A stretch of DNA of 64,000 bases. Origin: Candidatus Parcubacteria bacterium (GTDB taxonomy: Bacteria > Patescibacteriota > Minisyncoccia > Phycocordibacterales > EsbW-18). Made by a program: the position numbers and the translations under genes. The DNA lies in assembly GCA_039798445.1 (NCBI GenBank), contig JBDKFZ010000012.1, positions 2,407-66,406 on the forward strand, given 5' to 3'. Shown here piece by piece: positions 1,312-50,043 of this stretch; the first letter of the stretch is position 1; the number at the start of each line of letters is the position of its first letter. The notes below the pieces were generated by a model that saw nothing but the letters and a program-made list of their open reading frames with translations, did no database searches and was not told where the DNA came from.

Positions 1312-1358
1312 GGGTATAGTATACAGCAAGTAGCAATTGGCAATGAGCAATTAAGAAT

Positions 1359-1467
1359 GCGAAGCGACCTGTCCATCCAAGGAGCCTACGGAGCGCGACT
1401 GGCGCGAGTCGAGCGGCGAGCTAGCAAGCGAGACCGCGTGCTCCTTGGAGGGAACAGGGAGCGGAGC
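1359..1467 (+). repeat. GC-rich ~110-bp palindromic repeat element, copy B1 (second copy at 27681..27789, same orientation)
   Basis: Near-identical to 27681..27789 (differences at about 4 positions). Contains a perfect 10-bp inverted repeat tccaaggagc ... gctccttgga. Confidence 0.8.
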
Positions 1468-1505
1468 AAGAGAGCGAAGGTCAGTTAGATGAGTTTCGGG
1501 ATAAA

Positions 1506-1538
1506 GAAAAACCCCAACGATTTGTTGGGGTTTTTCTG
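1506..1538 (-). terminator. rho-independent terminator of the rRNA operon
   Basis: Hairpin ccccaac-gatttg-ttgggg followed by a T-run on the minus strand, immediately 3' of the 5S rRNA. Confidence 0.7.
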
Positions 1539-1797: not shown

Positions 1798-2110
1798 ACA
1801 TGAAAAACATTGTGAAGAACTACACGCGCGGGCGTCCGGAGGGCACGAAACCCTCTCTGATAAGAACGAGTTGCCTCGCTCCATCAGAACGTCCACCTAA
1901 GCCTTCCGGAGGATCCGGAAGTGTCTGACACTCTCGCGTCATGACTTGCCTTCGGAAACGACGGAGCGACCCGTGCGCAATGACCGGACCGTAGTCCGAC
2001 CAATCTTCGATGTTCATTGAATTGTGAAAGATCGTCCTGTGACGCCATTAACAACTTCATACTGTAGAGAATGAGAGAAACGTGGGGATTTTGTTTTGAT
2101 TTTCAGATTA

Positions 2111-5475
<3,365 letters not shown>

Positions 5476-8192: not shown

Positions 8193-11100
8193 CTATAAAG
8201 TGCCCGCTTGGGTTTTTATAAGCTCCTGCAAGAGCTGTTTAAGGAGCTCTATGAGCTTGAGCTGGAGCTGTTCAAGTGGCGTCCCCGTGGCTGGTGGCAT
8301 TGTTTCTCCACTCCCACCTCCCCCGCTTCGTCGGTGTGAACCACTACTTCCACCATCATCTTCCTCGTCTTCAGCTGGTGGAGTTTCTTCTTCATTTATT
8401 TCTTCCCAAACAAAAACATCTGCAACCCCATTAGTATCTCCAATTACAAGGTTTGTGTTTGAAGAATAAAAGGAAACAACCGTGCCACCATCAGAAACAT
8501 CTGGATATGAAACAGATGCGCCACCATCCGCAATACCAACACCTTCTGTTATCAATAATTCAACATCCTCTTCTCTGTCGTAACGATATAAATGGAGATC
8601 TTCTCCGCCCTCATCATACGCCGTATAAAAAACATAACGCCCATCTGATGACACGGCCACACGACCGCTCACATATCCATTGCCTGTAACATAGTCATCA
8701 CCAATAAGTTCTGTTGTACCGAGAGTACGGTCTCGAAGAAAGACTGCTCCGCTTCCATTTACTTCATCAGCAGTTAGGTTTGTTGAATCAGACCAAAACA
8801 CAACGTAGCGGCCATCTTCGGAAATAGCTGGGGTTGTCGCCGAAGCGTCACCAGTCACTTCATCACTATCTACATCGACTTGTTCCGTTGTGTCACTTTC
8901 ACGGTCAAACAAAAATACGTTTGTAAGAGAGGTGTCATTATCAAACCGAACATACACAATATATCGGCCGTCGTTAGACAGTATTAGTTCATCCTCATTT
9001 GCATTCAAAAAATACTGATCCTCAGTATCAAAAGCAACTTCTCGGGTAATCGCTTCCATAGTTTGGTCGTAGACAAAAATATCAGTTTTTCCGTTAGTAT
9101 CCCCCACAACAAGATTGGTGGCCTGCGACGTGAACACAATGTAGCGACCATCCTCAGATAGTGCACTTCGTGCAGAATCACTATCTCCCTCTTCGCCTCC
9201 TTCGTTTTTACTTACAAATGTAAGTTCTTCTGTGTCACGATCATAGACAAAAACATTACTTACTCCAACCATATTCTCAGGAAGGAGAAGCCCTGAAGTT
9301 GAAAATAGAACAAAACGTCCATCGCCCGATATCTCTGGCTCCCCTGCATTTTCAACATTTTCTCCTCCCTCCCCATTCAAACTTACGCGCTTAACACTGT
9401 TAGCCTGTCGATCATAGACAAAAATATCGTATGTGCCATTGGTATCATCAGGAACCAAATTTGTTGCGACTGATTCGAAGACAACATAGCGGCCGTCGCT
9501 TGAAATTTTTGGATTTTGCGAAGTTCCGTCTCCCTCTTCTGCCCCATCACTTATACTTACTCGTTCAAAATCAAACGTTATTGCTGGAGCGGCTATGAAG
9601 TTCCATGTTGTTTCGTCTGCAATACCAGCAAAAAGATTTCCGGATTCATCTTCAATCGCAGTTGCGTCTATGTGGAAGTAGTAGTCCGTTTCATTCTCGA
9701 GTGTAACTGTTGGAAAAAGAGATACGAGTGTACTATCAACCGTCACAGCATCTCCATCAGTCACATCGAATGTCTCAACAACACTGTCATCACTTGTCTT
9801 AAATAAAGTGATATTGCCTGTTCCGGCAACGACGGTTTCACTAAAATATAAATCGAACTGAGAAATATCTATTGCGACACCCGTTTCGTCGTCTCCCGGA
9901 GTAAAGCCAACGGATGTTGGCACCGCATCTGACGTGAAATTCCATGTTGTTTCATCAGAGATACCCACAAAACCGTTCCCAACCAAATCTTCAACGGCCC
10001 CTATATCAATAAGGAAATAATACTCTGTTCCCAACTCAAGCGTCACCGATGGATCTATGACAAGCGTGTCTGTTCCCGAAAGAGAAACCAGTCCTCCTGC
10101 AATATCTATTGTCTCCACGACAGAATCATCGGATGCATCGTACAAAACAATATCCCCTGTTGATGTCGCAATGTCTTGTTCAAACGTAATAGAAAATGTC
10201 GCATCAAGACCAATTTCAATAGCACCGTCTGCTGGATCAAATGTCGTAATGTTTGGTATATCAGGATACATATACACGCGACCGTTGTTTACGTTCGCTA
10301 TCATAAAGGAACCATCTGCATCCAGTGCAACTGCGTTCCACCCCTTGTCGGTAGCCCCTGCAGGTTGTTGTTCTGTCCAATTCTCACCACTATCGTCCGA
10401 TGTATAGAGACGACCACTGCTCACAGCGGCTATCAAATGTGAGCCATCAGAATCGGATGCAACAGTGATCCATGACTTATTAACAGCCCCCGCAGGTTGA
10501 CGCTCTGTCCAATCTACCCCTCCGTTACTTGAAGTGTAGAGACGACCATTGCTCACGCTGGCTATCAAATTGGAACCATCGGCATCAGAGGCAACACCCC
10601 ACCACAATGTATCAACATCTCCCGCAGGTTGACGCTCTATCCAATCTACCCCTCCGTTACTTGAAGTGTAGAGACGTCCACCAAGTACGCCGGCTATCAA
10701 GTTAGAACCATCGGCATCAGAATCTACCGATCGCCATTCTCCGTTAACATCTCCCGCAGGTTGACGCTCTATCCAATCTACCCCTCCGTTACTTGAAGTG
10801 TAGAGACGACCATTGGTGGCTATCCCCGCAATAAGATTTGAGCCATCAGCGTCAGAAGCGGCATCCCACCATGATTTTGTGACATCGCCCGCAGGTTGAC
10901 GCTCTGTCCAACTTACCCCTCCGTCATCAGATGTATAGAGACGGCTGTTTTGACCTCCCACAATAAGGTTCGAACCGTCATCATCAGAATCCAAAGCTCT
11001 CCATGAGCCATCAAAATTCCCAATGGGCTGACGTTGCGTCCATGTGATCCCTCCATTACTTGATGTCCAAAGTCTTCCACCACCACCAGAAGCTCCAACA

Positions 11101-11267
11101 AAAAGGTTTGAACCATCGGCGTCTGACGCCGCAGCAGACCATCCGTAATTAGCCGCAAACCCTGTAGGGGTCACCTCCAGCCACGTGTCTGTCGCAAACA
11201 CCAAACTTGGCAATACAAGCGCAAGTATCAAAAAAGAAAAAGTGAGGAAAGAAAGTAGTTTTTTCAT
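8193..11267 (-). CDS. giant secreted surface protein P1 (1024 aa): signal peptide, BNR/Asp-box-like propeller, Big_5-like Ig domains, PD40/TolB-like repeats, shared C-terminal helix module (no peptidoglycan-binding domain)
   Basis: Signal peptide MKKLLSFLTFSFLILALVLPSLVFA. About 8 repeats of S-x-[DN]-G-G-[VI]-[DST]-W-x-ERQPAG, 3 Ig-like units ending ETTWNFT, and about 7 repeats of SxDGRYVVFxSxATNLVxxDTNGxxDIFVYD. Tail reads GSHRRSGGGGSG...LEQLQLKLIELLKQLLQELIKTQAGTL. Confidence 0.8.
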   Translation of the reverse strand: MKKLLSFLTFSFLILALVLPSLVFATDTWLEVTPTGFAANYGWSAAASDADGSNLFVGASGGGGRLWTSSNGGITWTQRQPIGNFDGSWRALDSDDDGSNLIVGGQNSRLYTSDDGGVSWTERQPAGDVTKSWWDAASDADGSNLIAGIATNGRLYTSSNGGVDWIERQPAGDVNGEWRSVDSDADGSNLIAGVLGGRLYTSSNGGVDWIERQPAGDVDTLWWGVASDADGSNLIASVSNGRLYTSSNGGVDWTERQPAGAVNKSWITVASDSDGSHLIAAVSSGRLYTSDDSGENWTEQQPAGATDKGWNAVALDADGSFMIANVNNGRVYMYPDIPNITTFDPADGAIEIGLDATFSITFEQDIATSTGDIVLYDASDDSVVETIDIAGGLVSLSGTDTLVIDPSVTLELGTEYYFLIDIGAVEDLVGNGFVGISDETTWNFTSDAVPTSVGFTPGDDETGVAIDISQFDLYFSETVVAGTGNITLFKTSDDSVVETFDVTDGDAVTVDSTLVSLFPTVTLENETDYYFHIDATAIEDESGNLFAGIADETTWNFIAAPAITFDFERVSISDGAEEGDGTSQNPKISSDGRYVVFESVATNLVPDDTNGTYDIFVYDRQANSVKRVSLNGEGGENVENAGEPEISGDGRFVLFSTSGLLLPENMVGVSNVFVYDRDTEELTFVSKNEGGEEGDSDSARSALSEDGRYIVFTSQATNLVVGDTNGKTDIFVYDQTMEAITREVAFDTEDQYFLNANEDELILSNDGRYIVYVRFDNDTSLTNVFLFDRESDTTEQVDVDSDEVTGDASATTPAISEDGRYVVFWSDSTNLTADEVNGSGAVFLRDRTLGTTELIGDDYVTGNGYVSGRVAVSSDGRYVFYTAYDEGGEDLHLYRYDREEDVELLITEGVGIADGGASVSYPDVSDGGTVVSFYSSNTNLVIGDTNGVADVFVWEEINEEETPPAEDEEDDGGSSGSHRRSGGGGSGETMPPATGTPLEQLQLKLIELLKQLLQELIKTQAGTL

Positions 11268-11299
11268 GCAGAAATTGGTACTGGGGGGGGCAATGAATC

Positions 11300-11310
11300 A
11301 GTATACCAAA
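11300..11310 (-). promoter_or_regulatory. extended -10 box TGGTATACT (minus strand) upstream of P1
   Basis: Plus strand reads agtataccaaa; on the coding strand this is tttGGTATACT, about 35 nt upstream of the ATG and directly downstream of the P2 terminator. Confidence 0.4.
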
Positions 11311-11314
11311 CAAA

Positions 11315-11333
11315 AACCGCCTATTGAGCGGTT
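11315..11333 (-). terminator. rho-independent terminator after P2
   Basis: aaccgc-ctattga-gcggtt followed by tttttgtttgg on the minus strand. Confidence 0.6.
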
Positions 11334-11372
11334 CTTGTGTCTTGGTTGCATCAGCCCCTGATATAGAAAGGC

Positions 11373-14096
11373 TTATCTCTGTGTCATCAATTCCTGCAAG
11401 AGCTGTTTAAGGAGGTCAATCAGCTTAAGTTGAAGCTGGATGAGAACGTTAGTGTCCCCATGGAATGACGGCGGGTTGCTGATAGGCTTCCGGTGGGAAC
11501 CGCTTCCGCTTCCCCCATTGTCATCGTCTTCGCCCTCTTCTTCCTCTTCCACTTCCTCTCCTACTTCAAGATCAAATGTCGCAGTGACACTCTGTGCCGC
11601 ACTCATCGTGACAACACATGTTCCCGTACCTGAACATCCACCTCCTGACCATCCTATGAAATCAGAACCATCTGCAGCAACCGCAGTAAGAGTCACCTCG
11701 GTATCTGCCGCATAGTCTTCTGTACAATCAACACCACAGTTGATACCCGATGGGGCTGACGTCACAGTTCCCGAACCCGTGCCATCTTTTGAGACGGTGA
11801 GCGTTTCGGTGCCACCTACACCAGTGTTAAAAAAGAACAACGTTGAGGTTCCACTGTTAATGTCGTAATTACCGACATACAACTCCGTGTCGTCCGCAGC
11901 CAAACCAAGACCGTACACATTCGCTGTACCCACAGGATCAAACGCCGTTGCCGTACCATCTGTTGTGTCGAACGCAGCGAGATAATCACGCGACGTACCA
12001 CTGTTCACATCCGCAAAATCTCCACCGGCATAGAGGAGCGCATCATCTGAAGAGAGTTCAAGCTTGAAGACTAGAGCGTCGGGAACTGGTATAAATGCTG
12101 TTATGAGTGAATTGTCAGACAAGTCGATTCCCAACAAATACGGTGCACTAATTGCTCCGTAGCTGGAGAATTCTCCTCCGACGTATACATCACCTGTTGA
12201 TGTTGAAACTGCCACCGTGTACGAAATGCCGTCAAAGTTTGGATTAAAACTTGTCGCCAACCCCGTAGTTACGTTGAGTTCTCCAAAATACCCCCGGGCT
12301 TCAGAACCAATGTCTGTGAAGTCTCCTACAACATAGAGTGTTGTCTCATCTGTAGAAAGCGCGGTTGAGTGTACGTGTTGTCCATTTCCAGTTACGGTCG
12401 CATCAAACGCAGAAACGAGGGAGCCGTCCGAGGTATCAAGTTTGGCCAAAGCCGTTCTACTTCCTCCACCAATAGTGGTGAACGAACCTCCGGCGTAGAT
12501 ACTTGTTTCATCCGGAGACAGCACAAACGTTCTTATAGTACCATCAGCGTTGGGATCAAACGCCGTTACGGTACCCGCACCGACAGTGGTAAATGCTCCG
12601 GCATTATTTCTTGCTGTTGCCGTTGCGTCGAACGATGTGAAGTCACCACCCATGTAGAGAGTTCCATCATCATCTGAAAGAGCGAGTGCCCGCACGGTGC
12701 TATCTGCATCTGGGTCAAATGCTGTTACAGTACCCGCACCAACGGTGGTGAATGCCCCCACATAGTTTCTAAATGTTGCTCCACCGTCGAACGTTCCAAA
12801 ATCACCTCCCATGTAGAGAGTTCCTCCGTCCGAGGAAAGTGCGAGTGCGAATACTGTCGCGCCCGCACTAGGATCAAAAGCCGTTACTGAACCGTCTGTT
12901 GTGTCGAATGCCGCCACGTAATCTCTTACTGTCCCGTTTTCAACGGAGTTAAACTGACCACCGGCATAGAGTGTTGATCCATCTGGAGATAGTGCAAGTG
13001 CGAACACTGTTGCGTTATCGATATCAGGGTCAAATGCAGAATCTAAAACACCAGACGACGTGATATGTGCAAGGCGTGGTTGTGTTGTTGTTCCAACGTT
13101 CGTAAAACTTCCACCGATATACCATCCCCCCTCACCATCTGGAACAGATGCGTATATTGTTGCCCCCGGACCTCCTAATGTTGAAACCTTTGGATACGCA
13201 ACTGATGCTTGTGTTACTTCATCAAACGGAACCCCTTCACCAGCAAGTGTTCTGAACTCAAGAAAGTTACCACCTACATACAACGTAGTGCCGTCCGAAG
13301 AGCGCGCAAGAACCTGCCCCGCAGCATCGAGAGCAGCATTAAAATTGGTTATATCACCGGTATCACTATCAAATTCGGCTATGTACTCTTGGGGCAAAAG
13401 CCCATTTACGGTCAAAAAATCCCCAGCAGCATACACCGTTGATTCATCTACTGACAATTTAATACTCCATACCGTACTATCAACATCTGGATTAAAGTCA
13501 GTTGCAACACCATCCACGGTCGTAAACCCGGCAATATAGTTTCGAGCCGTCCCGCTATTTACGTCAGTAAATGAACCCCCAGCAAAAAGCGTTGCGTCAT
13601 CAGAAGAAAGCGCTATCGTGTTTACCTCGCCGTTTGGATTTGGATTAAATGCTGTGGCATTACCTGTTGTTGTATCTATTGCTGCAAGGTTAAATCGCTC
13701 ACTTTCGAGACATGCGGCCTCAAACTCCCCGCCGATACACCAAAATGACCCTCCCATGTACAACGTAGAGCCGTCCGAAGAGAGTGCTAGAGATGTCACA
13801 CCCCCGTTAAGGTTCGGATCAAACCCTCCTATCAATGAACCGTCACTCACATCAAACGCCGCAAGATAGTTTCGTGCGGTTGAAAGAGGTTCCCCAACAG
13901 TCGGCGTGATTTGGGTAAAATTACCACCCACGTAGAGCGTGGTGCCATCAGAAACGACAGCGGCAATAGATCCATCGAATTCATACCTACTTTTCACTGC
14001 GTCCGGAATTGAATCAAGCGCAGGTGCGGCATGTACGAAAGAAGGCACCGATGTGAACACGAAGAGAAGCGCGATGAGAAAGAATAGTTTTTTCAT
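11373..14096 (-). CDS. giant secreted surface protein P2 (about 907 aa): signal peptide, about 16 delta-60-like ~50-aa propeller repeats, shared C-terminal SHRKP/helix module (no peptidoglycan-binding domain)
   Basis: Likely start MKKLFFLIALLFVFTSVPSFVHA at 14096 (ORF track starts at 14135). Repeats follow the pattern LALSxDGxTLYxGGxFTxVNGxxRNYxAAFDTxxGxxTAFxPNxN. Tail reads EEEEEGEDDDNGGSGSGSHRKPISNPPSFHGDTNVLIQLQLKLIDLLKQLLQELMTQR. Confidence 0.8.
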   Translation of the reverse strand: MKKLFFLIALLFVFTSVPSFVHAAPALDSIPDAVKSRYEFDGSIAAVVSDGTTLYVGGNFTQITPTVGEPLSTARNYLAAFDVSDGSLIGGFDPNLNGGVTSLALSSDGSTLYMGGSFWCIGGEFEAACLESERFNLAAIDTTTGNATAFNPNPNGEVNTIALSSDDATLFAGGSFTDVNSGTARNYIAGFTTVDGVATDFNPDVDSTVWSIKLSVDESTVYAAGDFLTVNGLLPQEYIAEFDSDTGDITNFNAALDAAGQVLARSSDGTTLYVGGNFLEFRTLAGEGVPFDEVTQASVAYPKVSTLGGPGATIYASVPDGEGGWYIGGSFTNVGTTTQPRLAHITSSGVLDSAFDPDIDNATVFALALSPDGSTLYAGGQFNSVENGTVRDYVAAFDTTDGSVTAFDPSAGATVFALALSSDGGTLYMGGDFGTFDGGATFRNYVGAFTTVGAGTVTAFDPDADSTVRALALSDDDGTLYMGGDFTSFDATATARNNAGAFTTVGAGTVTAFDPNADGTIRTFVLSPDETSIYAGGSFTTIGGGSRTALAKLDTSDGSLVSAFDATVTGNGQHVHSTALSTDETTLYVVGDFTDIGSEARGYFGELNVTTGLATSFNPNFDGISYTVAVSTSTGDVYVGGEFSSYGAISAPYLLGIDLSDNSLITAFIPVPDALVFKLELSSDDALLYAGGDFADVNSGTSRDYLAAFDTTDGTATAFDPVGTANVYGLGLAADDTELYVGNYDINSGTSTLFFFNTGVGGTETLTVSKDGTGSGTVTSAPSGINCGVDCTEDYAADTEVTLTAVAADGSDFIGWSGGGCSGTGTCVVTMSAAQSVTATFDLEVGEEVEEEEEGEDDDNGGSGSGSHRKPISNPPSFHGDTNVLIQLQLKLIDLLKQLLQELMTQR

Positions 14097-14126
14097 GAGA
14101 ATGATGAAGCTAAAAGAATGCCCAAA

Positions 14127-14138
14127 GTATAGCAAAAG
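14127..14138 (-). promoter_or_regulatory. extended -10-like box TGCTATACT upstream of P2
   Basis: Minus strand reads ttttGCTATACTttggg, about 25 nt upstream of ATG 14096, overlapping the P3 terminator T-run. Confidence 0.35.
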
Positions 14139-14159
14139 CCACGGATTCCCGTGGCTTTT
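14134..14159 (-). terminator. rho-independent terminator after P3
   Basis: aaaagccacgg-attc-ccgtggctttt. Confidence 0.65.
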
Positions 14160-14184
14160 GTGTGAATTGACTAGAATCTAATGT

Positions 14185-17100
14185 CTACAAACCGTTGATA
14201 TACGCCCTCGTCACTGGTCCGAAGTATCCAGCAGCTGGAGTGATACCGACAGATGCTTGGTATTCAGCAAGAGCTGCTTGGGTGAGAGGGCCGAAGAAGC
14301 CTGTTGCTCCAACTGCTGCAAGAGCTTGGGCTTGTGGTCCCTTGTTTTGAGCAATGAGGAAGAGTTGGAGTGCTGTTACGTCTGGTCCCTTACTATTGAG
14401 ATCGAGGTCGCGGGTGTAGATATCTGATGTGGTTGATGGGATGCCGAGAAGTGAAGCCAGTATCGCCTTGAGTTCTTCGATGCGGGCTTGGAGAGACTCG
14501 AGGAGAGTTGTGTCGTCACGGAACGACGGAGGATTGACGAGAGGCTTTCGGTGACTTCCGCTTCTGGTTTCCCCATCATCTTCAACTTCGTCCACGTCTT
14601 CTGAATCATAAATACCAAACCAACCAGACGATCCTCCTACATATAGTTCATCGCCATCAGGGTGAAGGGCCAACGCATACATGTAGTAGGCATCTGTGGG
14701 ATTGAAATCAAGAACACTGGCATTAGACGTCTGAATTGCAGCGAGATAATCACGCAACGCCCCTCCTTCAGAATTAAAACTTCCACCTGCATAGAGGACC
14801 TCATCGTCAGATGTGAGAGCGAGAGAATACACAGCACCGCCTTCCGCGAAATCTGGGTCAAAATCGAGAAGCCCAAGATCGGACGTTGAGAATGCTGCAA
14901 GACCAGCACGTGCACCACCCCCAGTTTCTAACACACGCAACACCCCTCCTCCTGCAAAGATATTTCCATTTACGGGACCACTGATGGTATATACATCGTA
15001 ACCAAAACTAGTATTAAGACGGGCACTGAATTCTGTGAGTGTTGCGTCACTCGTATTGAGTGCTACGAGACCGGCAACATTCTCACCACTTATGTTTGTA
15101 AAACCACCACCCGCATACAGAACGGACTCGTCAGAAGAAAGACTTAATGCATACACCGTAGAGTTGGCGTCGGGGGCAAAAGGCATTGCAAGACCGTCGT
15201 CTGTGTCGATTGCAGCAAGACGATAGCGCTCGCTTCCAAGACACACTTCCTCTTCGTCATCATACCCACCAACACAGTAGAAATCTCCTCCTGCAAACAA
15301 AACACTGTCATCATCCGAGAGTTCCAGTGAGTAGACGCTACTGTTCATATCAGGATTAAACGCAGTTGCAACGCTCGTTGTTTCTGTTGTATCAAGTGCT
15401 GCGAGATAGTTTCTATCCGCATTACATACTTCCAGACCCGAATCATATTCGACACAAGAGAAACTTCCTCCCACATACAATGTCAAATCATCAGAAGAAA
15501 GAGCAAGACTTGTGGCACCGTTATTTAGAGAGGGCGCAAAGTCTGTTGCAACTCCATCTGAGGTGTTGAATCCAGCGACGTGACCGCGATCTGTTGCGCC
15601 ATTAACTACTAGGAAGTTCCCCGCTGCGTAGAGTGTTGCCTCATCTGAACTTAGTTGAAGTGCGTATACGTCGCCATTCATGTCGGGATCAAAATTGGTC
15701 AGTGATCCATCACTCGTATCGAATGCGGCAAGACGATTTCTTGTTGTTGAGTTGATCGTTGTGAATTCTCCACCCGCGTAAAGCGTTTCTCCATCAGAAG
15801 AAAGTGCGAGGGCCCGAACTGTTCCCCCCTCAGAACCGAAGTCCGGCTCGAAGGTAGGATCGATAGTCATATCAGGAAGAATGTGTGCAATGCGCGAGTC
15901 CCATACTCCTCCATCTATACGGTTGAAGGACCCACCAGCATACCAACCACCGTTGCCGTCCGGGATAGATGCGTGGACTGTGCTTGCATTCGTCGAAAAA
16001 ATCGACTGTGAATCAACAAATGATCCTGTTGTGGCGTCAAAAATACCTCCCTCACCGATATTTATAAGGCCTGGTGTAAATTCAGTAAACTCACCTCCCG
16101 CATATAACGTCTCTCCGTCAGAGGAGAGTGTGAGGGCCCGAACCGTATCATCCGCTGGAAATTCTGTAGAAAGAAGGGTGGAACCGTCAGTGGTATCAAG
16201 TGCGACCAGTTTTTCTGTGAAGTCTCCACCAGCGTACAAACTGTTGCCATCAGACGAGAGTTTAAGTGCGCGAACCTCACCATCAAGTGAAGGAGTGAAC
16301 GCAATCTCCGCTCCTGTACCCGCGTCCATTTTTGCTACGTAATAAACGTCCCCGCCTACTCCCCATTCCTCAAAATCTCCACCGGCGTACACCGTTGAAC
16401 CATCAGAAGAGACAACAAGAGAATAAACCGTATATCCACCCCCCATATTGGGATTAAAATCCGTCATGACTCCATCAATTGTAGTGACCGCCGCAAGACT
16501 GTAACGATTACCTCCGATTCCATTTATTCCATTAAAAGCACCTCCAATATAGAGAGTCCCAGCATCTGGTGAGAGAGCGAGAGCATGCACCGACTGATCT
16601 ACTGAGACCACGTTTGGATTAAAATCAGTTAGTTCATACGTAGCAAGATCGATTGCAGCGACTTCACTTCGAGAAACACGATCTGCTTGTGTCATTGAAC
16701 CCCCTGCAAGCAACTGTCCATTCACAGAAGAAAGCGCGTAAACTGTACCATCGTAAAATCCACCACCAAAATCCTCTGCGGTCGCCGTGCCGTCAGAAAC
16801 TGCGAGTGCTGCGATTCTATTGCGTGTCGTTCCTCCATTAACCGCTGTAAATGACCCACCTGCGTAAAGTGTGGTCTCATCAGAAGAAAGTGCGAGTGAA
16901 TACACAAAACCAGCACCCACGTTTGGGTCAAATGCCTCTACAAGTGAGCCGTCGGTCGTATCAACTGCAGCAATTTTGTTACGTGTCGTGCCAGAATTAA
17001 CATCTGTAAACACTCCTCCTATATAGAGTGTCGAATCATCGTCTGAAAGAGCCATCGCAAGAATGTCATCATTAACATTTGGATCAAAGACAAGCTGACT

Positions 17101-17979
17101 TCCATCAGACGTGTCGAATGCAAAAAGCGCGTCATACCCATCACCTATCCCAAATTCCGTAGTACCACCCCCCACATACAATATGTCTCCGCCGGAAGAA
17201 AGGGCTAAAGAATTGGGGCGTGCAGGGAAAGTGATGTCCCCTCCAAAATCAACACCGGGAACAAGGGAGCCGTCTGTTGTATTAAGCGCGGCAAGACCAT
17301 ATGCAGATTGTCCATTAACCGAAACAAATGTTCCACCGACATACAATGTTTCTCCATCCGGAGAAAGCACAATCGCCTTAACAATATTGGTCAAGTTTGG
17401 ATTAAACGCTGTAAGTGTCCCATCTGATGTATTAATCGCTGCAAGACGATTTCGTGTCGTACCATTGATTTCAGAAAAATCACCTCCAACATAAAGTGTT
17501 TCACCGTCTGGTGAAAGAGCCAGGGCTAAAACCATATCTCCAAGAATAAATACGGGATCAAAATCGGTATCAATAGATCCATCAGAAAGCACGTGTGCAA
17601 GGGAGTAAAGGCTCTCTCCGTTTACTGTGTCAAAATCCCCACCGACATACCAGCCCCCAACCCCATCATCTGTAACAGCAAAAACTGTTTCTTCATCGCC
17701 TGGGGTCACTCTTTCAAATCTCGGGAACGTTTCCACTCGTTCTCCTGTTTCCTCAGTAAACAAAACTGCATTACCAACAATCTTCGAAACCTGAGAAAAA
17801 CTTCCGCCGAGATACAATGTGTCGCCATCAGTTACAACCACATTTATCTGATCACTAAACGTATACTTATTCTTTACTGCATCCAATGTTTCGGAGAGTG
17901 TTGGTGCTGCTTGCACAAAAAATGGTGCGATGACAAGCACAGCAAGGAGGGCGAAGATGGAACGATACAATGCCTTCAT
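14185..17979 (-). CDS. giant secreted surface protein P3 (about 1264 aa): signal peptide, about 22 delta-60-like propeller repeats, shared C-terminal linker module, C-terminal peptidoglycan-binding domain (PG_binding_1-like)
   Basis: Likely start MKALYRSIFALLAVLVIAPFFVQA at 17979 (ORF-track TTG at 18000). C-terminus reads DDGETRSGSHRKPLVNPPSFRDDTTLLESLQARIEELKAILASLLG then YTRDLDLNSKGPDVTALQLFLIAQNKGPQAQALAAVGATGFFGPLTQAALAEYQASVGITPAAGYFGPVTRAYINGL. Confidence 0.85.
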   Translation of the reverse strand: MKALYRSIFALLAVLVIAPFFVQAAPTLSETLDAVKNKYTFSDQINVVVTDGDTLYLGGSFSQVSKIVGNAVLFTEETGERVETFPRFERVTPGDEETVFAVTDDGVGGWYVGGDFDTVNGESLYSLAHVLSDGSIDTDFDPVFILGDMVLALALSPDGETLYVGGDFSEINGTTRNRLAAINTSDGTLTAFNPNLTNIVKAIVLSPDGETLYVGGTFVSVNGQSAYGLAALNTTDGSLVPGVDFGGDITFPARPNSLALSSGGDILYVGGGTTEFGIGDGYDALFAFDTSDGSQLVFDPNVNDDILAMALSDDDSTLYIGGVFTDVNSGTTRNKIAAVDTTDGSLVEAFDPNVGAGFVYSLALSSDETTLYAGGSFTAVNGGTTRNRIAALAVSDGTATAEDFGGGFYDGTVYALSSVNGQLLAGGSMTQADRVSRSEVAAIDLATYELTDFNPNVVSVDQSVHALALSPDAGTLYIGGAFNGINGIGGNRYSLAAVTTIDGVMTDFNPNMGGGYTVYSLVVSSDGSTVYAGGDFEEWGVGGDVYYVAKMDAGTGAEIAFTPSLDGEVRALKLSSDGNSLYAGGDFTEKLVALDTTDGSTLLSTEFPADDTVRALTLSSDGETLYAGGEFTEFTPGLINIGEGGIFDATTGSFVDSQSIFSTNASTVHASIPDGNGGWYAGGSFNRIDGGVWDSRIAHILPDMTIDPTFEPDFGSEGGTVRALALSSDGETLYAGGEFTTINSTTRNRLAAFDTSDGSLTNFDPDMNGDVYALQLSSDEATLYAAGNFLVVNGATDRGHVAGFNTSDGVATDFAPSLNNGATSLALSSDDLTLYVGGSFSCVEYDSGLEVCNADRNYLAALDTTETTSVATAFNPDMNSSVYSLELSDDDSVLFAGGDFYCVGGYDDEEEVCLGSERYRLAAIDTDDGLAMPFAPDANSTVYALSLSSDESVLYAGGGFTNISGENVAGLVALNTSDATLTEFSARLNTSFGYDVYTISGPVNGNIFAGGGVLRVLETGGGARAGLAAFSTSDLGLLDFDPDFAEGGAVYSLALTSDDEVLYAGGSFNSEGGALRDYLAAIQTSNASVLDFNPTDAYYMYALALHPDGDELYVGGSSGWFGIYDSEDVDEVEDDGETRSGSHRKPLVNPPSFRDDTTLLESLQARIEELKAILASLLGIPSTTSDIYTRDLDLNSKGPDVTALQLFLIAQNKGPQAQALAAVGATGFFGPLTQAALAEYQASVGITPAAGYFGPVTRAYINGL

Positions 17980-18007
17980 AGTTTCAGATGTTAATTTCAA
18001 TCCTCAA

Positions 18008-26092: not shown

Positions 26093-26201
26093 GTGGTCAC
26101 ACTTTCGCTGCGTGGTCCGTGTTTTGTCCTCGCAAGCTCGGAAAAACCCGGATCCACTTCGCTCTGCGCCATACATTTGGAGTTTTCTAATTGCCAATTG
26201 C
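26093..26201 (+). repeat. ~110-bp repeat element A1 (inverted copy A2 at 39437..39548)
   Basis: The reverse complement of 26093..26201 aligns to 39437..39548 with about 88% identity, including a shared terminal motif gcaattggcaatt. Fills the convergent sod / comEC intergenic region and abuts the comEC stop codon. Confidence 0.85.
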
Positions 26202-27641
26202 TTATTGCTTCTTACTGAATAGTACCCAGCATCCGATTACCACATACAGACCAACAAGCACCCACACGGACATCACTCCCACATCCACCAACATCGACGG
26301 AAAGCTGTCAGCGATTTTGACGATCCAAAAGACGTACGCACCCACTGCTTCGATGAGAATTGAAAATGGTAGAGCGACGAACGCGCCGAAGAATCCTGCA
26401 ACGCCTGCCGCCAATGAACCAATCATAAAAAGCGGCATCGTTGGGAGCACCACGAGATTTGCCGGGAGTGTGAGGAGATTCGTCATTCCCGATTGATATA
26501 AGAGGATAGGAGTCACGGCGGTCTGCGCGCCGAGCGTCGTTCCGAGCGTCTCGCGCAATCCGCCCGTCTCGGGAACCCACGTCAGATGTTTGGCATACAG
26601 CGGCGCGATAGAAACAAGCCCCCATGTGGCCAAGAAAGAGAGTTGGAACGATGGATCGTACAGAAGGATATATGGAACATGAAAAATCATGAGGCACCCC
26701 GCCAACATGAGCGAACGGGTCACGTTGTAGCGCCGCTTCACCACGCGCGCGAGCACAGTGAGCCCGGCCATAATGCCCGCACGGATAGCCGTTGATGAGG
26801 CTCCGGCGATCATGATGTAAACCACAATGCCGACAATGCTCCCCAACGAGCCGACAACTGTTGAAAAGGAGCTGAACATAGTGCGGACAAAGTCTCCCGC
26901 CATGGTGATGTTGTAGCCCGAGACCACGATGATGTGGATCAACCCCGCGATGCGGAATGCCTCCTCGTCATCTTGAGACAAAGCACCTTCAACACCAAGC
27001 ACAACACCCGAAGCTAACCCCGCCGAAGGTTCTGATACGCTTCGCTCGATGCTCTCAACGAACGAATGTTTTACTTTGATAAAGAACGCGCGGATTGGAT
27101 TTCCTTGGTCAGCTTCAATAAGCGTCGCGCTCCCCCGCTTGATCACATGGAATATCCCCTTTCGAGCCAAGAAGCTCGGATAATCGAACGTGCGTCCCAA
27201 ATCGGTTTCGAATGCTTCAGGTAATTCGAGCTTTCCTTCGACCATCACTTTGTCGCCATAGGAGAATATTGGATATGACGGAACAGAAACCGAGATGTCT
27301 TCCCTCCCCACATCAACCAGTATCTTCTGCCCTTTCGGACTCATCTGCGGGTCATCGCTGATGATGCCCTCGAGCGTTATTGACTCGCCGATGCGTTCTA
27401 TCACCATCGGATCGCCTGCAAAAAGCCGCGAATGGTACGAGCGGGCGATGCCAAGTCCAAAGCACATGAGAAATATCGCGATGCAGACGAGCGCTCTTTT
27501 CTCTGACCTGAACATCAAAATGGATGCGATGCCGACAAGCACGGCCTCGGCGCCATATTCCCAACCCACATCCCAAAGAAACTGAAGCGCTACACCCCCA
27601 AGGAATCCCCAGAATCCTGCATGAACAAAAGCAGAGCGCAT
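26202..27641 (-). CDS. comEC: competence protein ComEC/Rec2 membrane channel (N-terminal OB-like domain plus competence domain, no MBL domain)
   Basis: About 480 aa with many TM helices: LIHIIVVSGYNITMAG, FQLSFLATWGLVS. The ATG (MRSAFVHAGFWGFLGG) is at 27641; the ORF-track start 27689 is a TTG inside repeat B2. Confidence 0.8.
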   Translation of the reverse strand: MRSAFVHAGFWGFLGGVALQFLWDVGWEYGAEAVLVGIASILMFRSEKRALVCIAIFLMCFGLGIARSYHSRLFAGDPMVIERIGESITLEGIISDDPQMSPKGQKILVDVGREDISVSVPSYPIFSYGDKVMVEGKLELPEAFETDLGRTFDYPSFLARKGIFHVIKRGSATLIEADQGNPIRAFFIKVKHSFVESIERSVSEPSAGLASGVVLGVEGALSQDDEEAFRIAGLIHIIVVSGYNITMAGDFVRTMFSSFSTVVGSLGSIVGIVVYIMIAGASSTAIRAGIMAGLTVLARVVKRRYNVTRSLMLAGCLMIFHVPYILLYDPSFQLSFLATWGLVSIAPLYAKHLTWVPETGGLRETLGTTLGAQTAVTPILLYQSGMTNLLTLPANLVVLPTMPLFMIGSLAAGVAGFFGAFVALPFSILIEAVGAYVFWIVKIADSFPSMLVDVGVMSVWVLVGLYVVIGCWVLFSKKQ

Positions 27642-27680: not shown

Positions 27681-27789
27681 GCGAAGCAACCTGTCCCTCC
27701 AAGGAGCCTACGGAGCGCGACTGGCGCGAGTCGAGCGGCGAGCTAGCAAGCGAGACCGCGTGCTCCTTGGAGGGAGCAGGGAGCGGAGC
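27681..27789 (+). repeat. GC-rich ~110-bp palindromic repeat element, copy B2 (copy B1 at 1359..1467)
   Basis: Near-identical to B1. Lies between the mscL stop and the comEC start. Confidence 0.8.
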
Positions 27790-36317: not shown

Positions 36318-38141
36318 CTAAGGATTGAGGAGGACCGAATACGTTGTTGCTCCCGAAACCGAGAGCCCCGTGATGTTTTGTGTCGTAAATCCACTTGCCG
36401 ATACATCCAATGTGTATGAAGTTGCAGATAGACCACGGAAGAACGACTGTCCACATGCCGATGAGTCTATGGTTTCATCATACCCCGTTCTACTGAGACG
36501 CACTGATGCGTTTTCGAGCGGGACATTCTGGTCATTCGTGACATACACAAGAAGCGAGTGCGCAGTCGCAGGTGCAAAGATGAAATCAACAATCTGTGAG
36601 ATTGCTGGATTGAGCCCAAATGGCTGGAACGGACAAGCCTCAACAACCGAAAGGCTGCTTTCAGCGGATCCTTTGGTGATGAGGTAGGTGTCCCACTCGA
36701 CGTCTTCAATCGCAAGCGTTCCATCAACTCCGGTAGTGTGTGAATCGGTATATTTGTAGATAGGTGCACCTCCACCATCGGTGCCGATTGTCTTTGCTCC
36801 CTGCATCGTAAAGGTGGTTGTTGGACGTGGAATCGGACCCTCATCATAGGTAATCGTCCACGAACGAAGCGTTGGCGTAACCCATGGGTCACTGCTCTGC
36901 ACATCGCCGACCAGCGCAAGACTGGGATACTCAATAACCGACAAACCAGAAAGATCGACCGGTGATGAACTGAATCCCGAAGAATTGCCGGGAAGATCGC
37001 TGTCAGAAACCAGCACTGATGACGTCGCCGTTGTAGCGAGTAGCGAAACACGCACAGTCGTGCTTGCCATGGCAATCGCATCAAATGCCAACTCATGCCA
37101 TGTATTCAGATATACAGGAGCAACCGATGTGGCAGTCACAGAACCAGTAGAAAAATATGTTCCTGGGGCTCCCGCGAGCGTCACCTCCCCTCCCGACACA
37201 ACAACATCCTCTGCCTCCGCAACCAACGATGAATCAGCAAATGAGTCTGTCCACGTTGCGGAACGAGTCTCGTCAAATGAACGCAATGTGATGTCAGAAA
37301 GCTCGTCGATACGGAACGTTGAAGATGTGATGGTGTCCCCAATAACAGTGAGCGTCCCGGGCATAGGGTTCGGATTCGACGGCGAGGCCAGATAGGTGCG
37401 GTCTGTGCTGTGTCCGGCTTTCGTCGTTTCAATCTGATACGCAGTCGATGTTGGTGCACCAGGAAAATAAGCGACGCCGTCATTGCTCGAAAACGTGGAG
37501 ATGCTGATGTTCGGCGACACGACGGTATTCGTTATTGTTATCTCCGCATTGGATACCGGTGCACCTCCGGCATCAACAACATTCACCACAAGTGTTCCTC
37601 CCCCATCCAAAGTCTCAATGCCTTTTGGAACGACGTTAGTTATGAGCGACACATCGCGGTCGGTGCCACGGAATTGCCATGAGACGCTTACCTTGGCGAT
37701 TTTAAAATCTGCCTGAATCCCATTGGTATCAGAGGGCCCTGTACCGTCCGCAGCATGATCGATGAACTGAACAAATGTACGACGCGTGTAAACAATATTA
37801 TTGAGAGAAATGCTTTCTTCGGGTGGAATAGAACCTGCGGGAATGCCACCCAACACCGCGACGCTGTTGTACGGGAGACTTCGTATATATTCAATCTGTT
37901 CATTGGCGAGCGCAATCGCACCAGTCTTTGCCTTTCCCAATCCCACTGACACCACCGCAAGCCGGATGACACCAAAAAGACCGATGAAAATGAGCAACAT
38001 GAGCGCCGTACCGACCACTGCATCAATCAGAGTAGCCCCGCGCTGGGGCGTAGAAGCACGAAATCCGAATCTCGAAATCCGAAACAAATTCAAAGCTCGA
38101 AATCCTAAATCCAAAACAGGTTGTAAGTTCGTTTTGAACAT
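36318..38141 (-). CDS. large pilin-like protein (607 aa) with prepilin-type N-terminus and a Thr/Ser-rich ectodomain; candidate tip adhesin or major subunit
   Basis: ...QRG|ATLIDAVVGTALMLLIFIGLFGVI prepilin-like segment. The annotated ATG (38141) lies in the loop of a large palindromic repeat cluster, so the true start is uncertain. Confidence 0.65.
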   Translation of the reverse strand: MFKTNLQPVLDLGFRALNLFRISRFGFRASTPQRGATLIDAVVGTALMLLIFIGLFGVIRLAVVSVGLGKAKTGAIALANEQIEYIRSLPYNSVAVLGGIPAGSIPPEESISLNNIVYTRRTFVQFIDHAADGTGPSDTNGIQADFKIAKVSVSWQFRGTDRDVSLITNVVPKGIETLDGGGTLVVNVVDAGGAPVSNAEITITNTVVSPNISISTFSSNDGVAYFPGAPTSTAYQIETTKAGHSTDRTYLASPSNPNPMPGTLTVIGDTITSSTFRIDELSDITLRSFDETRSATWTDSFADSSLVAEAEDVVVSGGEVTLAGAPGTYFSTGSVTATSVAPVYLNTWHELAFDAIAMASTTVRVSLLATTATSSVLVSDSDLPGNSSGFSSSPVDLSGLSVIEYPSLALVGDVQSSDPWVTPTLRSWTITYDEGPIPRPTTTFTMQGAKTIGTDGGGAPIYKYTDSHTTGVDGTLAIEDVEWDTYLITKGSAESSLSVVEACPFQPFGLNPAISQIVDFIFAPATAHSLLVYVTNDQNVPLENASVRLSRTGYDETIDSSACGQSFFRGLSATSYTLDVSASGFTTQNITGLSVSGATTYSVLLNP

Positions 38142-38200
38142 TTGGATTTAGGGTTTAGTGCTTCTTTCGGATTTCGTGCTTCGTGCTTCGGATTTCATCC
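38037..38200. repeat. palindromic repeat cluster (direct and inverted copies of cgaaatccgaa, tandem cgtgctt x2) spanning the pilin start and the pilC stop
   Basis: gaagcacgaaatccgaatctcgaaatccgaaac ... ttggatttagggtttagtgcttctttcggatttcgtgcttcgtgcttcggatttc. Two ~55-nt arms, imperfectly complementary, around a ~26-nt loop that contains the pilin ATG. Confidence 0.7.
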
Positions 38201-39410: not shown

Positions 39411-39436
39411 TACGAAAATTGTAGCACGAGAAGCTA

Positions 39437-39548
39437 TTAGCAATTGGCAATTAAAAAACTCCAAATGTATGGCGCAGAGCGGAGTGGATCCGGGTTTTTC
39501 CGAGCCTGCGAGGACAAAACGCGGACCACGCAGCGAAGGTCATACCGC
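39437..39548 (-). repeat. repeat element A2 (inverted copy of A1) in the pilB-pilC intergenic region
   Basis: Aligns to the reverse complement of 26093..26201. Begins with gcaattggcaatt and ends near ggaccacgcagcgaagg. Confidence 0.85.
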
Positions 39549-44344: not shown

Positions 44345-44351
44345 ACACTAC

Positions 44352-44440
44352 GCGGCCATCCTTCCTTGTTCCGCTGCGGAACTCGTCGCGCCCTTCGGCG
44401 ACTCCTCGGCAGTCCTCGCTCCACAGGAAGGACGGACCGC
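44352..44440 (+). other. GC-rich nested-hairpin element in the 3' region after the anti-sigma gene (candidate structured RNA)
   Basis: Outer inverted repeat gcggccatccttcc ... ggaaggacggaccgc encloses gttccgc/gcggaac and gtcgcgcc/ggcgac sub-hairpins. It is followed by a canonical terminator. Confidence 0.4.
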
Positions 44441-44458
44441 TTCGTTTATATCAAAAAC

Positions 44459-44480
44459 AAAACACCCTTTCGGGTGTTTT
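44459..44480. terminator. bidirectional rho-independent terminator
   Basis: aaaacaccc-tttc-gggtgtttt. Confidence 0.75.
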
Positions 44481-44503
44481 GCCTAATAGCCAATAGCTTC
44501 TAG

Positions 44504-46637: not shown

Positions 46638-49600
46638 CTAAAGACTATTTACGTATGCCCTCGTTACCGGCCCAAAGAATCCTACAGCAGGAGTGATACC
46701 GACAGGTGCTTGGTATTCAGCCAAAGCTGCTTGTGTAAGAGGTCCAAAGAAGCCTGTGGCTCCGTTTGAGGCGAGCGATTGTGCTGCGGGTCCCTTGTTC
46801 TGTGTCATGAGGAAGAGCTGGAGCTGGAGGACATCGTCCCCTTGTGCACCGAGATCGAGGTCACGGGTGTAGAGGTTGGATGTTGTCGTTGGAGTGCCGA
46901 GGAATGCGAGCATTGCTGGTGACGGGGTGCCGCCTTGTGCGATGAATTGGGTAATGAGGGTGCGGAGAAGGGTGAGAAGGTCGGAGCTTCCGCCTGTTGT
47001 TCCTGAACCACCGCCGCGACGATGAGATGAGCTTCCTCCCCCGTCTTCTTCCTCTTCATCATCGGCTGGCGGGGTTTCTTCTTCAACAACCTCTTCCCAA
47101 ACGAAGACGTCCGTCGAACTATTTGTATCACCCGTAACAAGGTTTGTTGCGTCAGAAACAAAACCTATGATTAAACCGTCATTTGAAATTGCTGGGCTGT
47201 CTGAATATCCACTCCCATCAGAGTTCGACGAGCCCTCAGTTATGTACAGCAATGTGTCTGTTGTACGGTCATATCGATAGACACCCGCATAGTCCCCCTC
47301 TCCATCATCCGTAGTTTGACCGAACGCAACATAGCGACCATCGGCAGAAATGACAGGTGCGTAAGAGGAGTCAGCGTCATCATTTGTAATACGTTCCATC
47401 ACTCCTGTCTCCCTATCAAGCACGAATACATCTTGAACGCCCTCTGTATCATCAGAAACTAGATTGTCTGCGTTGGATGAAAACGCAACATAGCGACCAT
47501 CGGCAGAAATTGCCACACCTCCTCCCGCGATATCACTATTTCCCTCCTCGTCCAAGTCATTTTTATCAACCATCTCCACAGTATCCGCATCTCTGTCATA
47601 CACATACAGGTGGTTATATCCTTCAATGGCTTCCGGCACAAGCAGACCACTCGTACTAAAGGTCACAAAGTTCCCGTTGCCTGATATTCGGACGGCACCT
47701 TGAACGTTTTCTGTGTTTTCTCCTCCTTCATCATCAAGACTCACCCGTTCAATAGTATCGGTGTCACGATCGTAGACAAAAGCATCACTTCTGCTATTTG
47801 TATCATCCGTAACAAGGTTTGTCGCATCGGAGTAAAAAGCGACATAACGACCATCGTTAGAAAGAATAGGATCATATGAAGCCCCATCCCCTTCCTGACC
47901 AAGGTCATTGAGACTTACGCGCTCAACCGTATCAGTGTCACGATCGTACACAAAAACATCGAAGGTATCATTGGTGTCATCGGGGATAAGGTTCGTCGTA
48001 GCTGAACGAAAAGCTACATACCTACCGTCAGATGAGATGCTCGGGGTCTGTGAATTACTGTCTCCTTCCTCACCAAGGTCGCTCACACTTACCCGTTCAA
48101 TGGTGTCTAAATCACGATCGTAGACAAAGACATCGTCCCATCCGTTTGTGTCATCCGAAACAAGATTGGTTGCTCCTGAACTAAAGACGACATACCTGCC
48201 ATCTGTCGAAAGGGAAACATTGAATCCTGTGGAATCGCCCTCTTCACCTTCGTTGTTTACGTTCACACGTTCAAAATCAAGTGCGGGTGGTGCTGGAACA
48301 TCTTGTACCGTAAAGTTCCATGTTGTTTCGTCCGCAATTCCAACATACGAGTTACCAGTACCATCCACAAAAGCTCCCTCGTCAATTAGCAGGTAATACG
48401 CCGTGGCATATTCAAGATCGACGTCTTGATATATGTAGACGTTTTCATCCTCGGCCTCAAGAGCATCGGCATCCGTCACGTCAAAAGTGGCGACAGTGCT
48501 GTCATCAGAAACTTTTTTAAGGGTTATGTTTCCTGTTCCAACAACGACATCTTGATCAAAAACAATCGTTGGGGTACCTCCCGAAAAAACAGTTATCGAA
48601 ACGTCTTCAGCATCATCTGCGGGTGAAAACGTTTCGACCACAGGAGGTGCATCTGTCGTAAAACTCCACTGTGTTTCATCCGAAATCCCAACAAACGGAG
48701 CGCCCCCATCATCTTCGATTGCTCCTGTATCAATGAGCACGTAATATTCTGTTGCCTCTTCGAGATCCGCATCTAAATCAATCTCCAACGTTGTAGTATC
48801 GGAGAGCGTAGCTTTTGGACCGGCAACATCTACTGTTTCGACCAGACTATCGTCGCTTGCTTTGTGAATTGTTATATTTCCCGTTGTTGTCGCAATGTCT
48901 TTATTAAAAACAAGAGTGAGGTTTGTGCCTACAACAACCTCTCTGGCGTTGTCTGAAGGTGTAAAACTGTCTAATACAATTGGCTCTGGTGTTACATACA
49001 ACCCACCCTCGACAGTAGCAACAATAAGATTCGAGCCGTCGGCGTCTGAAGCAACAGCCTGCCAAGCATAGCTATTGACACCTCCCGGCTGTTCTTCAAA
49101 CCACGTATCTCCACCGTCGTCAGAAGAATGTAGACTTCCTCCATTTACCCCCGCAAGCAAATTTGTACCAGTATCATCGGAAGCAACTGACCCCCAACCT
49201 TCAGTCGGAAAACCTGTGGGTTGACGCTCCATCCAGTTTGCACCACCATCACTTGATGTATATACAAGAGTGTTTCCTCCGGCAACGATGAGATTCGAAC
49301 CATCGGCGTCGGAGGCAACCTTGTCCCAGTTTTTTTCGGTGTCACCGGCAGGTCGACGCTCTACCCATGTATCTCCTCCATCGTCGGAGACATAAATAAA
49401 CCCATTAAACGTACCGATAATGAGCACAGAACCATCCGCATCTGAATCAACAGATATGATATTTATCTGTGTCGAAGTTGCAGTATGTTCTTCCCATGTA
49501 TCTCCGCCGTCGAAAGACGTATAGATAGTACTAGTTGCGCTTGTAACAGCGGCGAGATTCGAGCCATCGGCGTCTGAAGCAATACCCGTCCAATATTCAA

Positions 49601-49970: not shown

Positions 49971-49998
49971 GTAATGGGAGCTAAAAACAATATCAAAA

Positions 49999-50010
49999 GT
50001 ATACCAAAAA
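49999..50010 (-). promoter_or_regulatory. extended -10 box TGGTATACT upstream of P4
   Basis: Minus strand reads gggtttttGGTATACTtttgatatt, about 30 nt upstream of ATG 49970. Confidence 0.4.
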
Positions 50011-50043
50011 CCCCTCAACTCTTTGGTTTTTGGGGATTACTCT

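Follow-up and report, generated by a model that had tools for sequence, protein, structure and literature searches.

B1 and B2, two nearly identical palindromes in the window (the whole stretch of 64,000 nt that was analyzed), are members of a previously undescribed family of intergenic repeats, the H family, and nothing of the kind in Patescibacteria turned up in our searches of the literature. The family is multi-copy. Its members share a conserved fold with a marked strand asymmetry, they occupy non-orthologous sites, the occupants of orthologous sites turn over, and some members are chimeras. The window is from a 'Candidatus Parcubacteria' MAG, as identified by a database protein (locus tag RLY47_) that is 100% identical to one encoded beside the element, and the relatives that carry the family are Paceibacteria-type Patescibacteria. 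We consider the chances to be about even that B1 and B2 belong to a lineage-restricted family of intergenic repeats, structured, palindromic, and multi-copy, that resemble REP, REPIN, or BOX elements. This reading is based on the many loci, the presence of both orientations, pairs, subtypes, chimeras, and remnants, the turnover, and the position of elements between a terminator and a promoter. That the H elements are mobile, how they would move, and what, if anything, they would do for the host are points that we infer.

The genomes of Patescibacteria (CPR) are very small and gene-dense, and persistent repeated non-coding DNA is unexpected in them. It is for this reason that a family of 100–125-nt elements with a strand-specific, covarying fold, several subtypes per genome, and turnover at fixed slots is notable in the CPR. 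The family represents either a persistent REPIN-like intragenomic population, of which none has been described in the phylum, or a new structured RNA.

The two copies in the window and their surroundings

B1 and B2 (Table 1) are direct repeats on the plus strand that align without gaps over 109 nt, with 106 positions identical (97%); an earlier sequence-only reading had identified both and put their identity at about 96%. No repeat of this grade is expected by chance. The three differences (1366 G/27688 A, 1375 A/27697 C, and 1454 A/27776 G) all fall in the outer stem, and the inner 83 nt are identical. Both copies have the perfect 10-bp stem tccaaggagc/gctccttgga described in that reading, which in B2 continues to 14 perfect bp (27694–27707 with 27762–27775, 54 nt between), and in B1 the equivalent 14 bp are 93% complementary. 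A search of the window for the stem-gap-stem pattern returned only B1 and B2, and there were none in 100 shuffles. Folding of the two copies, the check that the reading had proposed, revealed both strands to be far more stable than shuffles, with energies of −57 and −65 kcal/mol on the plus strand (z ~ −5) and −50.5 and −61 kcal/mol on the minus strand. B1 differs from B2 at 3 positions and B2 differs from its ortholog in a relative (L007) at ~6. That the two window copies are closer to one another than B2 is to its ortholog indicates that copying or homogenization within the genome has probably been recent.

Table 1. Coordinates of the H elements, their parts, and adjoining signals in the window.
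Feature	Position	Strand	Remarks
B1, H-a copy	1359..1467	+	model score 140.6 bits
B1 5' clamp	1359-1367	+	GC/GAA/GC/GA
B1 long-stem 5' arm	1368-1386	+	
B1 hairpin 1	1389-1411	+	
B1 hairpin 2	1413-1437	+	
B1 long-stem 3' arm	1440-1458	+	
B1 3' clamp	1459-1467	+	GA/GC/GGA/GC
3' tail ('R') motif AGCGAAGGTCAGT	1473..1485	+	common to H' elements and the orthologous L016 spacer
B2, H-a copy	27681..27789	+	model score 144.3 bits
B2 5' clamp	27681-27689	+	
B2 5' arm	27690-27708	+	
B2 hairpin 1	27711-27733	+	
B2 hairpin 2	27735-27759	+	bulged A, tandem G·A, AGCA loop
B2 3' arm	27762-27780	+	
B2 3' clamp	27781-27789	+	
H' element	39429..39548	+	L module (TAGCAATTGGCAATT...), GCAGAGCGGAG, simple hairpin, GCAGCGAAGGTCATACC
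H' second copy	26101..26212	-	94% identical to 39429-39540
H-c, more distant relative	44346..44447	-	19 bits, E 0.06; 5' CGAAGCGG..., long stem, branched tip
Symmetric A-run/hairpin/T-run terminator, 5S rRNA-B1 gap	1505..1537	.	usable in either direction
Promoter-like region, 251-aa membrane-protein gene	1316..1349	-	TTGCCA-16-TACTAT, tandem heptads
13-bp hairpin and U tract around comEC start codon	27632..27660	-	

Most genes in the window are on the minus strand. B1 lies 47 nt from the ATG (1311–1309) of a gene for a 251-aa membrane protein, the start of which is backed by an identical database protein, and B2 lies 39 nt from the ATG of comEC (27641–27639). The sequence-only reading correctly placed both copies beside the ATG of a minus-strand membrane-protein gene, although its distances of 48 and 40 nt need correction. 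On their other sides the copies follow the 3' ends of other transcription units, as it had also observed: the 5S terminator is 37 nt from B1, and the stop codon of mscL (27793–27791) is 1 nt from B2. Its claim that the ORF caller was drawn to TTG starts inside the elements holds for comEC (TTG 27689, within B2) but not for B1, since the TTG at 1350 lies 9 nt beyond that element.

Genes adjacent to the elements were observed to have a −10-like box (TAYAMT-like) 4–8 nt ahead of their ATG and on this basis look leaderless. In the case of the 251-aa protein gene, the promoter-like region ends 4 nt ahead of the ATG and touches the 5' end of B1, and its −10 region is a palindrome (GTATAGTATAC) at 1314–1324. 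The hairpin around the start codon of comEC is kept via compensatory changes in three relatives (L008, 9981–10010; L009, 9975–10012; L012, 4898–4930), and its role may be that of an attenuator, or of a terminator that acts on upstream transcripts and overlaps the leaderless start. Should mscL transcripts end at this hairpin, the reverse complement of B2 would be located in the 3' UTR of mscL.

Several other features were noted. Arrays of 3–4 tandem 7-nt repeats precede −10 boxes in the window (1316–1349, TTGCYAN; 39411–39455) and in the relatives L014 (1670–1745), L016 (1040–1100), and L020 (380–425), and orthologs swap a whole heptad array for another heptad (CTAGAAC), as though the repeats evolve in concert. 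The nearby rRNA operon (1552–5475, minus strand) has a tRNA-Ile(GAT) gene (1724–1797) between the 23S (2112–5475) and 5S (1552–1659) genes, and the 23S match spans 3364 nt against a model of 2925 nt, which leaves ~440 nt of insertions.

Further members of the family and their placement

The sequence-only reading would have been undermined if the repeat had occurred at these two sites only, with no conserved structure; instead, further copies with a conserved fold were found. Exact 20-mer scans of species-representative genomes and of JGI metagenomes each yielded one true extra copy. In a Patescibacteria MAG (JAUPUE01), an H-a element lies between divergent def and mnmA genes (L001), and on a JGI contig of 14.9 kb an H-a element adjoins ftsK (L005). 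Two other JGI contigs (L006 and L021) are identical to the window wherever they were compared. Matches in a Bacteroidota MAG (L002), in high-GC coding sequence (L003 and L004), and in a viral contig (L013) were discarded as chance on reading them, and there was no true match in viral contigs, plasmids, or phages. We also translated the three open frames of the element and searched a protein database for spurious ORFs, which gave five clusters leading to copies L022 through L027. In three of these (L023, L024, and L025) H-a is downstream of an Exo_endo_phos (exonuclease) gene, and since L024 and L001 belong to one MAG, at least two copies are present in that genome. Other family loci are beside an ABC-F gene and between rnpA and yidC (L022). 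No genes orthologous between L001 or L005 and the window were found.

The 12 distinct copies of the two main sets, and the H' and H-c relatives as well, are all intergenic. The H-a set (~109 nt) comprises B1, B2, L001, L007, L005a, L026a, L027a, and L023, and the H-b set (~125 nt) comprises L014/L015, L005c (3012–3138), L026b, and L027b. H-b and H-a differ in their stem sequences but share an architecture: a covariance model built from H-b alone recovered every H-a copy on the purine-rich strand with E ≤ 1e-7, whereas matches on the reverse strand had E ≥ 1e-3. The H' relatives share a 5' leader (TAGCAATTGGCAATT...GCAGAGCGGAG) and a 3' tail (GCGAAGGTCATACC) that flank a plain hairpin. Of the two H' elements in the window, the plus-strand one is between the start of a PilC-like gene and the 3' end of the upstream gene, and the other overlaps the stop codon of comEC, between convergent comEC and sodA; further H' elements are in L012, L005b, and L016. 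The window's H-c element sits after a canonical terminator (44459–44487), between convergent genes.

There are thus five family members in the 64-kb window and three in the 14.9 kb of L005, and the local density in the DNA examined is ~1 element per 5–15 kb. Across the databases the census is small, in that the 20-mer matched one other GTDB species genome and the spurious ORFs formed five clusters, so that copies per genome may number in the tens rather than the hundreds.

Comparison of orthologous spacers revealed different occupants in different relatives. The spacer between mscL and comEC has an antisense H-a in the window, L006, and L007, a remnant comprising just the final 20 nt of the element, together with an inserted small ORF, in a close relative (L008), another GC hairpin in L009, and a sense-oriented H' in L012. 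The ORF inserted in the L008 spacer (9582–9965) encodes a 90-aa membrane protein, and a duplicated mscL 3' end is also present there. Similarly, the spacer between the 5S gene and the membrane-protein gene has H-a in the window, H-b in L014, a short H' in L016, and no recognizable member in L020. No clean empty site was seen among the orthologous spacers, only other members or remnants.

Recombinant forms were also observed. In L022 (5698–5826, from the same JGI sample as the window), the 5' half of an H-a passes into the 3' half of an H-b at hairpin 2, and the rod cannot form; this chimera is located beside dnaA/dnaN. L005a is an H-a fused to the 3' half of an H'. Two loci have inverted pairs reminiscent of REP clusters (BIMEs): in L026 (250–532) an H-b and an H-a are convergent, 45 nt apart, and in L027 (607–852) they are head-to-head with ~10 nt between their 5' ends. 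Overall, both orientations occur, about one third of copies having the opposite one, and placements include gaps between divergent genes (L001, L005a), gaps between convergent genes, sense positions after stop codons, and the inverted pairs.

Fold, covariation, and strand asymmetry

The purine-rich strand of the elements (the plus strand of the window) is predicted to fold as a long rod with a three-way junction at its tip. The base of the rod is a conserved clamp of 2 bp, a 3×3 GRA/GGA loop, GC/GC, and tandem G·A, above which is a stem of ~18 bp with a freely variable sequence. Two small hairpins emerge from the junction at the tip, the second of which has a bulged A in its stem, tandem G·A, 3–4 bp, and an ARYA loop. 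Among H-a copies the tip (83 nt) is nearly invariant across loci and samples, and it is the stem that varies.

Covariation supports this fold. In the H-a set, 13 of 38 pairs had changed on both sides and 98% of cells were paired; none of 500 shuffles scored as high, and sliding the partner by 1–3 columns left 0–5 such pairs. As MAFFT failed to align H-a with H-b, a model-based alignment was used for the 12 copies of both sets. In that alignment, which like the H-a one was fitted to the model and in which two clades (the H-a/H-b split) dominate the counts, 98.8% of 430 cells were paired and 27 of 40 pairs had changed on both sides (91 cells), compared to 4–8 pairs in the slid controls. The covariation score was 0.556 versus 0.194 for shuffled sequences, a comparison that kinship alone can win without structure. 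It is nevertheless unlikely that the covariation is an artifact, based on the slid controls and on the many pairs with at least three pair types.

Two additional tallies from the 12 copies do not depend on alignment. G·A accounts for 72 of the 76 mismatches in symmetric internal loops, and there are 18 G·U pairs versus one A·C. On the complementary strand each G·A becomes C·U or U·C and each G·U becomes A·C. The purine strand was 4–18 kcal/mol more stable in all seven copies that were folded on both strands, and with DNA parameters the asymmetry was smaller but in the same direction. This stability difference and the G·A/G·U pattern indicate that one specific strand, the purine-rich one, is under structural constraint as single-stranded RNA or DNA. 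Compensatory pair changes together with wobble pairs on one strand are what is generally looked for in a structured RNA, and a single-stranded DNA would look alike. In B1 and B2, the constrained strand is antisense to the flanking genes.

The elements share with the structured RNAs of Rfam a covariation-supported fold of ~110–125 nt but matched no family even at E ≤ 10. Rfam 15 at gathering scores returned only 23S, tRNA, and 5S from the window, and the permissive search (E ≤ 10) of the B2 region gave only chance miRNA-hairpin matches of 18–20 bits, far under their gathering scores. The Rfam scan that the sequence-only reading had recommended therefore assigns the element to no family. A tRNA/tmRNA scan likewise found nothing at the element.

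Known structures and retroelements were also considered as candidates and rejected. By inspection, the loops are not K-turns, in that they are symmetric (3×3, 2×2) rather than a 3-nt bulge followed by tandem G·A. The L module was set aside as a sigma-70 promoter for a purine-strand RNA, its spacing and −10 varying among copies. A DGR template/variable repeat pair does not fit two copies that are both intergenic, with 3 differences that show no one-way change at adenines, and a reverse transcriptase is lacking nearby. Retron, attC, SRP, 6S, and RNase P RNA were dismissed on the multi-copy nature of the elements and on their having neither partner genes nor Rfam matches.

Relation to known repeats and competing explanations

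BOX and ERIC/IRU repeats offer one point of comparison. The BOX elements of Streptococcus pneumoniae are built of boxA-B-C modules, and both BOX and the ERIC/IRU elements of enterobacteria are intergenic and lack a transposase of their own. The H elements resemble these in being modular (an L module, a hairpin body, and an R tail), in their strong predicted fold, in occurring in either orientation, and in that no transposase was seen with them in ~260 kb of related DNA. They have no sequence similarity to them, however, and neither BOX nor ERIC has the strand-specific tandem G·A architecture or the three-way junction. Correia elements of Neisseria and MITEs in general have terminal inverted repeats, a target-site duplication (TA for Correia), and a recognizable parent IS. 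Like these, the H elements are palindromic intergenic repeats of ~100–150 bp that can lie beside promoters or in 3' UTRs and vary between strains. Unlike them, they have no target-site duplication, there being no direct repeat in the flanks of 13 copies, and although their arms are complementary as terminal inverted repeats would be, the mismatches are systematically purine-purine. The gene tables covering ~260 kb of related DNA list no parent IS and no transposase (RAYT/IS200-type, Y1_Tnp, or other), nor was a parent IS found in plasmids and phages. The suggestion in the sequence-only reading of a MITE is thus not supported in the DNA sampled, while its suggestion of a REP-like repeated palindrome gains from the additional copies and their conserved secondary structure.

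A REPIN consists of two inverted REPs around a spacer that merely retains a hairpin, its ends being conserved (PMC3337134), and REPINs are believed to function in the form of single-stranded DNA or RNA, with mobilization by a RAYT (PMC3337134, PMC3116915). REP/REPIN populations run to tens or hundreds of copies in a genome, and the cognate RAYT (HUH/Y1) gene usually has repeats on its flanks. Like the REP/REPIN elements of Enterobacteria and Pseudomonas (PMC3337134, PMC3116915), H elements are extragenic, multi-copy hairpin units of ~90–120 nt with several sequence groups per genome, are single or in inverted clusters, have a conserved hairpin base, and combine persistence in a lineage with local turnover. 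The two systems differ in that the H elements lack inverted short REPs around a free spacer, and no RAYT or IS200-like gene was seen in the ~260 kb sampled. The H ends (GCGAAGCGACC and GGGAGCGGAGC) are not reverse complements of one another, having purines in both arms at mismatches, and the H-a tip is a conserved three-way junction on a varying stem, the reverse of a REPIN. In addition, hybrids have been reported absent among REPINs but an H-a/H-b hybrid exists here, the copy number of H is probably lower, and the host is a Patescibacteria lineage. The H family thus keeps the overall scheme of REPINs but departs from it in two defining respects, its ends not being true inverted copies and its conservation extending to the tip.

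We hypothesize that the H elements are non-autonomous repeats that would be copied, replaced, and recombined among intergenic "safe" gaps, a typical gap running from the end or terminator of one gene to the promoter of a leaderless gene that comes next. As single-stranded nucleic acid, the strand-specific fold is probably what the machinery for copying or recognition would read. Any effects on neighboring genes would probably be secondary; for example, the reverse complement of B2 may form a large hairpin in the mscL 3' UTR, and B1 would simply lie between the 5S terminator and the next promoter.

Some of our data count against a REP-like origin. A structured RNA would be expected to give the G·A/G·U pattern, and the invariance of the H-a tip, the opposite of what is seen in REPINs, suggests a sequence-specific function for the tip, as in a functional RNA. 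We give some weight, clearly less than to a REP-like family, to the H-a and H-b rods being a functional single-stranded structure new to Patescibacteria, either a family of ncRNAs or the substrate of a single-strand-specific copying enzyme. If so, they would represent a host-maintained system in genomes that are otherwise stripped of non-coding DNA. One possibility is a REPIN-like system with a novel partner, the enzyme being as yet unrecognized; another is that the GA-clamped rod and invariant tip bind a dedicated protein, the RNA being transcribed divergently from leaderless promoters.

An RNA explanation can be made more specific, namely that the copies are paralogous genes of a new class of structured ncRNA, trans-acting or antisense, whose purine strand is transcribed divergently from the adjacent leaderless promoter and whose GA-rich rod and three-way-junction tip bind protein or RNA. 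Such a class would be new, given that Rfam has no matching family, and the strong covariation, the purine-strand specificity of the G·A/G·U pattern, and a tip that is invariant over different loci and samples all favor it. At least eight of the tabulated elements have a 5' end that adjoins and faces a divergent gene start, where transcription could begin from a shared bidirectional promoter region, and the palindromic −10 region beside B1 could fire both ways. B1, L014, and L016 are also followed on the purine strand by the symmetric terminator that they share with 5S. That terminator is, however, present only at these 5S-linked copies and is lacking on the purine strand at B2, L001, and L005c. 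The copies do not each have their own promoter and terminator as independent sRNA genes would, and neither terminators nor sigma-70 matches were consistent among them. In L027 the head-to-head arrangement leaves no room for promoters, and other copies lie in sense directly after stop codons or terminators (L012, L023, L026b, and the comEC-sodA H' of the window). There are also chimeric and truncated copies (L022, L008), and different members at orthologous sites are unexpected for a conserved RNA gene. Overall, we hold this explanation as a tentative one and as the main rival, less likely than the REP-like repeat family.

We consider it improbable that the elements act on the pyrimidine-rich strand, sense to the flanking minus-strand genes, as an insulator, a terminator, or an mRNA-stabilizing hairpin that stops or protects the upstream transcript just ahead of the next promoter. 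REP elements do stabilize upstream mRNA, several members (B1, B2, H39, L005c, L014, L026a) are between the 3' end of a gene and the next promoter, a U-rich stretch follows the hairpin on that strand (e.g., GCUUCGCUUUAAAUUCUUUUC after B2), and the reverse complement of B2 begins 1 nt past the mscL stop codon. Against this, the constrained strand is the other one, the sense strand having C·U/U·C and A·C in its place, and roughly one copy in three is oriented the other way. An intrinsic terminator would have a short GC stem-loop with a U tract directly after it, oriented with the gene that it ends, but the elements were not called by the terminator scan, and for L001 and L005a, between divergent genes, there is nothing upstream to terminate. 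Canonical terminators already precede B1, L014, L016, L026b, and H-c. The insulator or terminator role raised in the sequence-only reading may apply to single copies but fits the data poorly. The cis-regulatory leader that it had also raised fares worse, and we consider it very improbable that the elements are 5' leaders or riboswitch-like regulators of the 251-aa membrane protein gene and comEC. While the window copies are 39–47 nt upstream of a membrane-protein ATG, these genes look leaderless, which would place the element upstream of the transcription start, and the conserved fold is antisense to them. A riboswitch would be expected in sense, in the 5' UTR of a consistent class of gene, but family members were found in varied contexts and orientations, with def, mnmA, ftsK, an ABC-F ATPase gene, rnpA/yidC, and the exonuclease gene as other neighbors, and there are comEC and membrane-protein orthologs without H-a. 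This reading is largely refuted by the distribution of the elements.

H elements have practical consequences for annotation. They mislead gene callers, as in the TTG start within B2 and in spurious ORFs (e.g., P0187–P0191), and, for leaderless genes in these organisms, they mark the boundary between terminator and promoter. A census could be made directly with the two covariance models from this analysis (R1 and R2).

Other repetitive sequences were noted in the window. The spacer of two minus-strand genes at 38052–38196 contains dense short direct and inverted repeats (GAAATCC/GTGCTTC units). In two regions, 8193–18000 and 46638–60310, there are runs of very large minus-strand ORFs that consist of diverged repeat modules, and modules of ~130–160 nt and ~300 nt are common to both.
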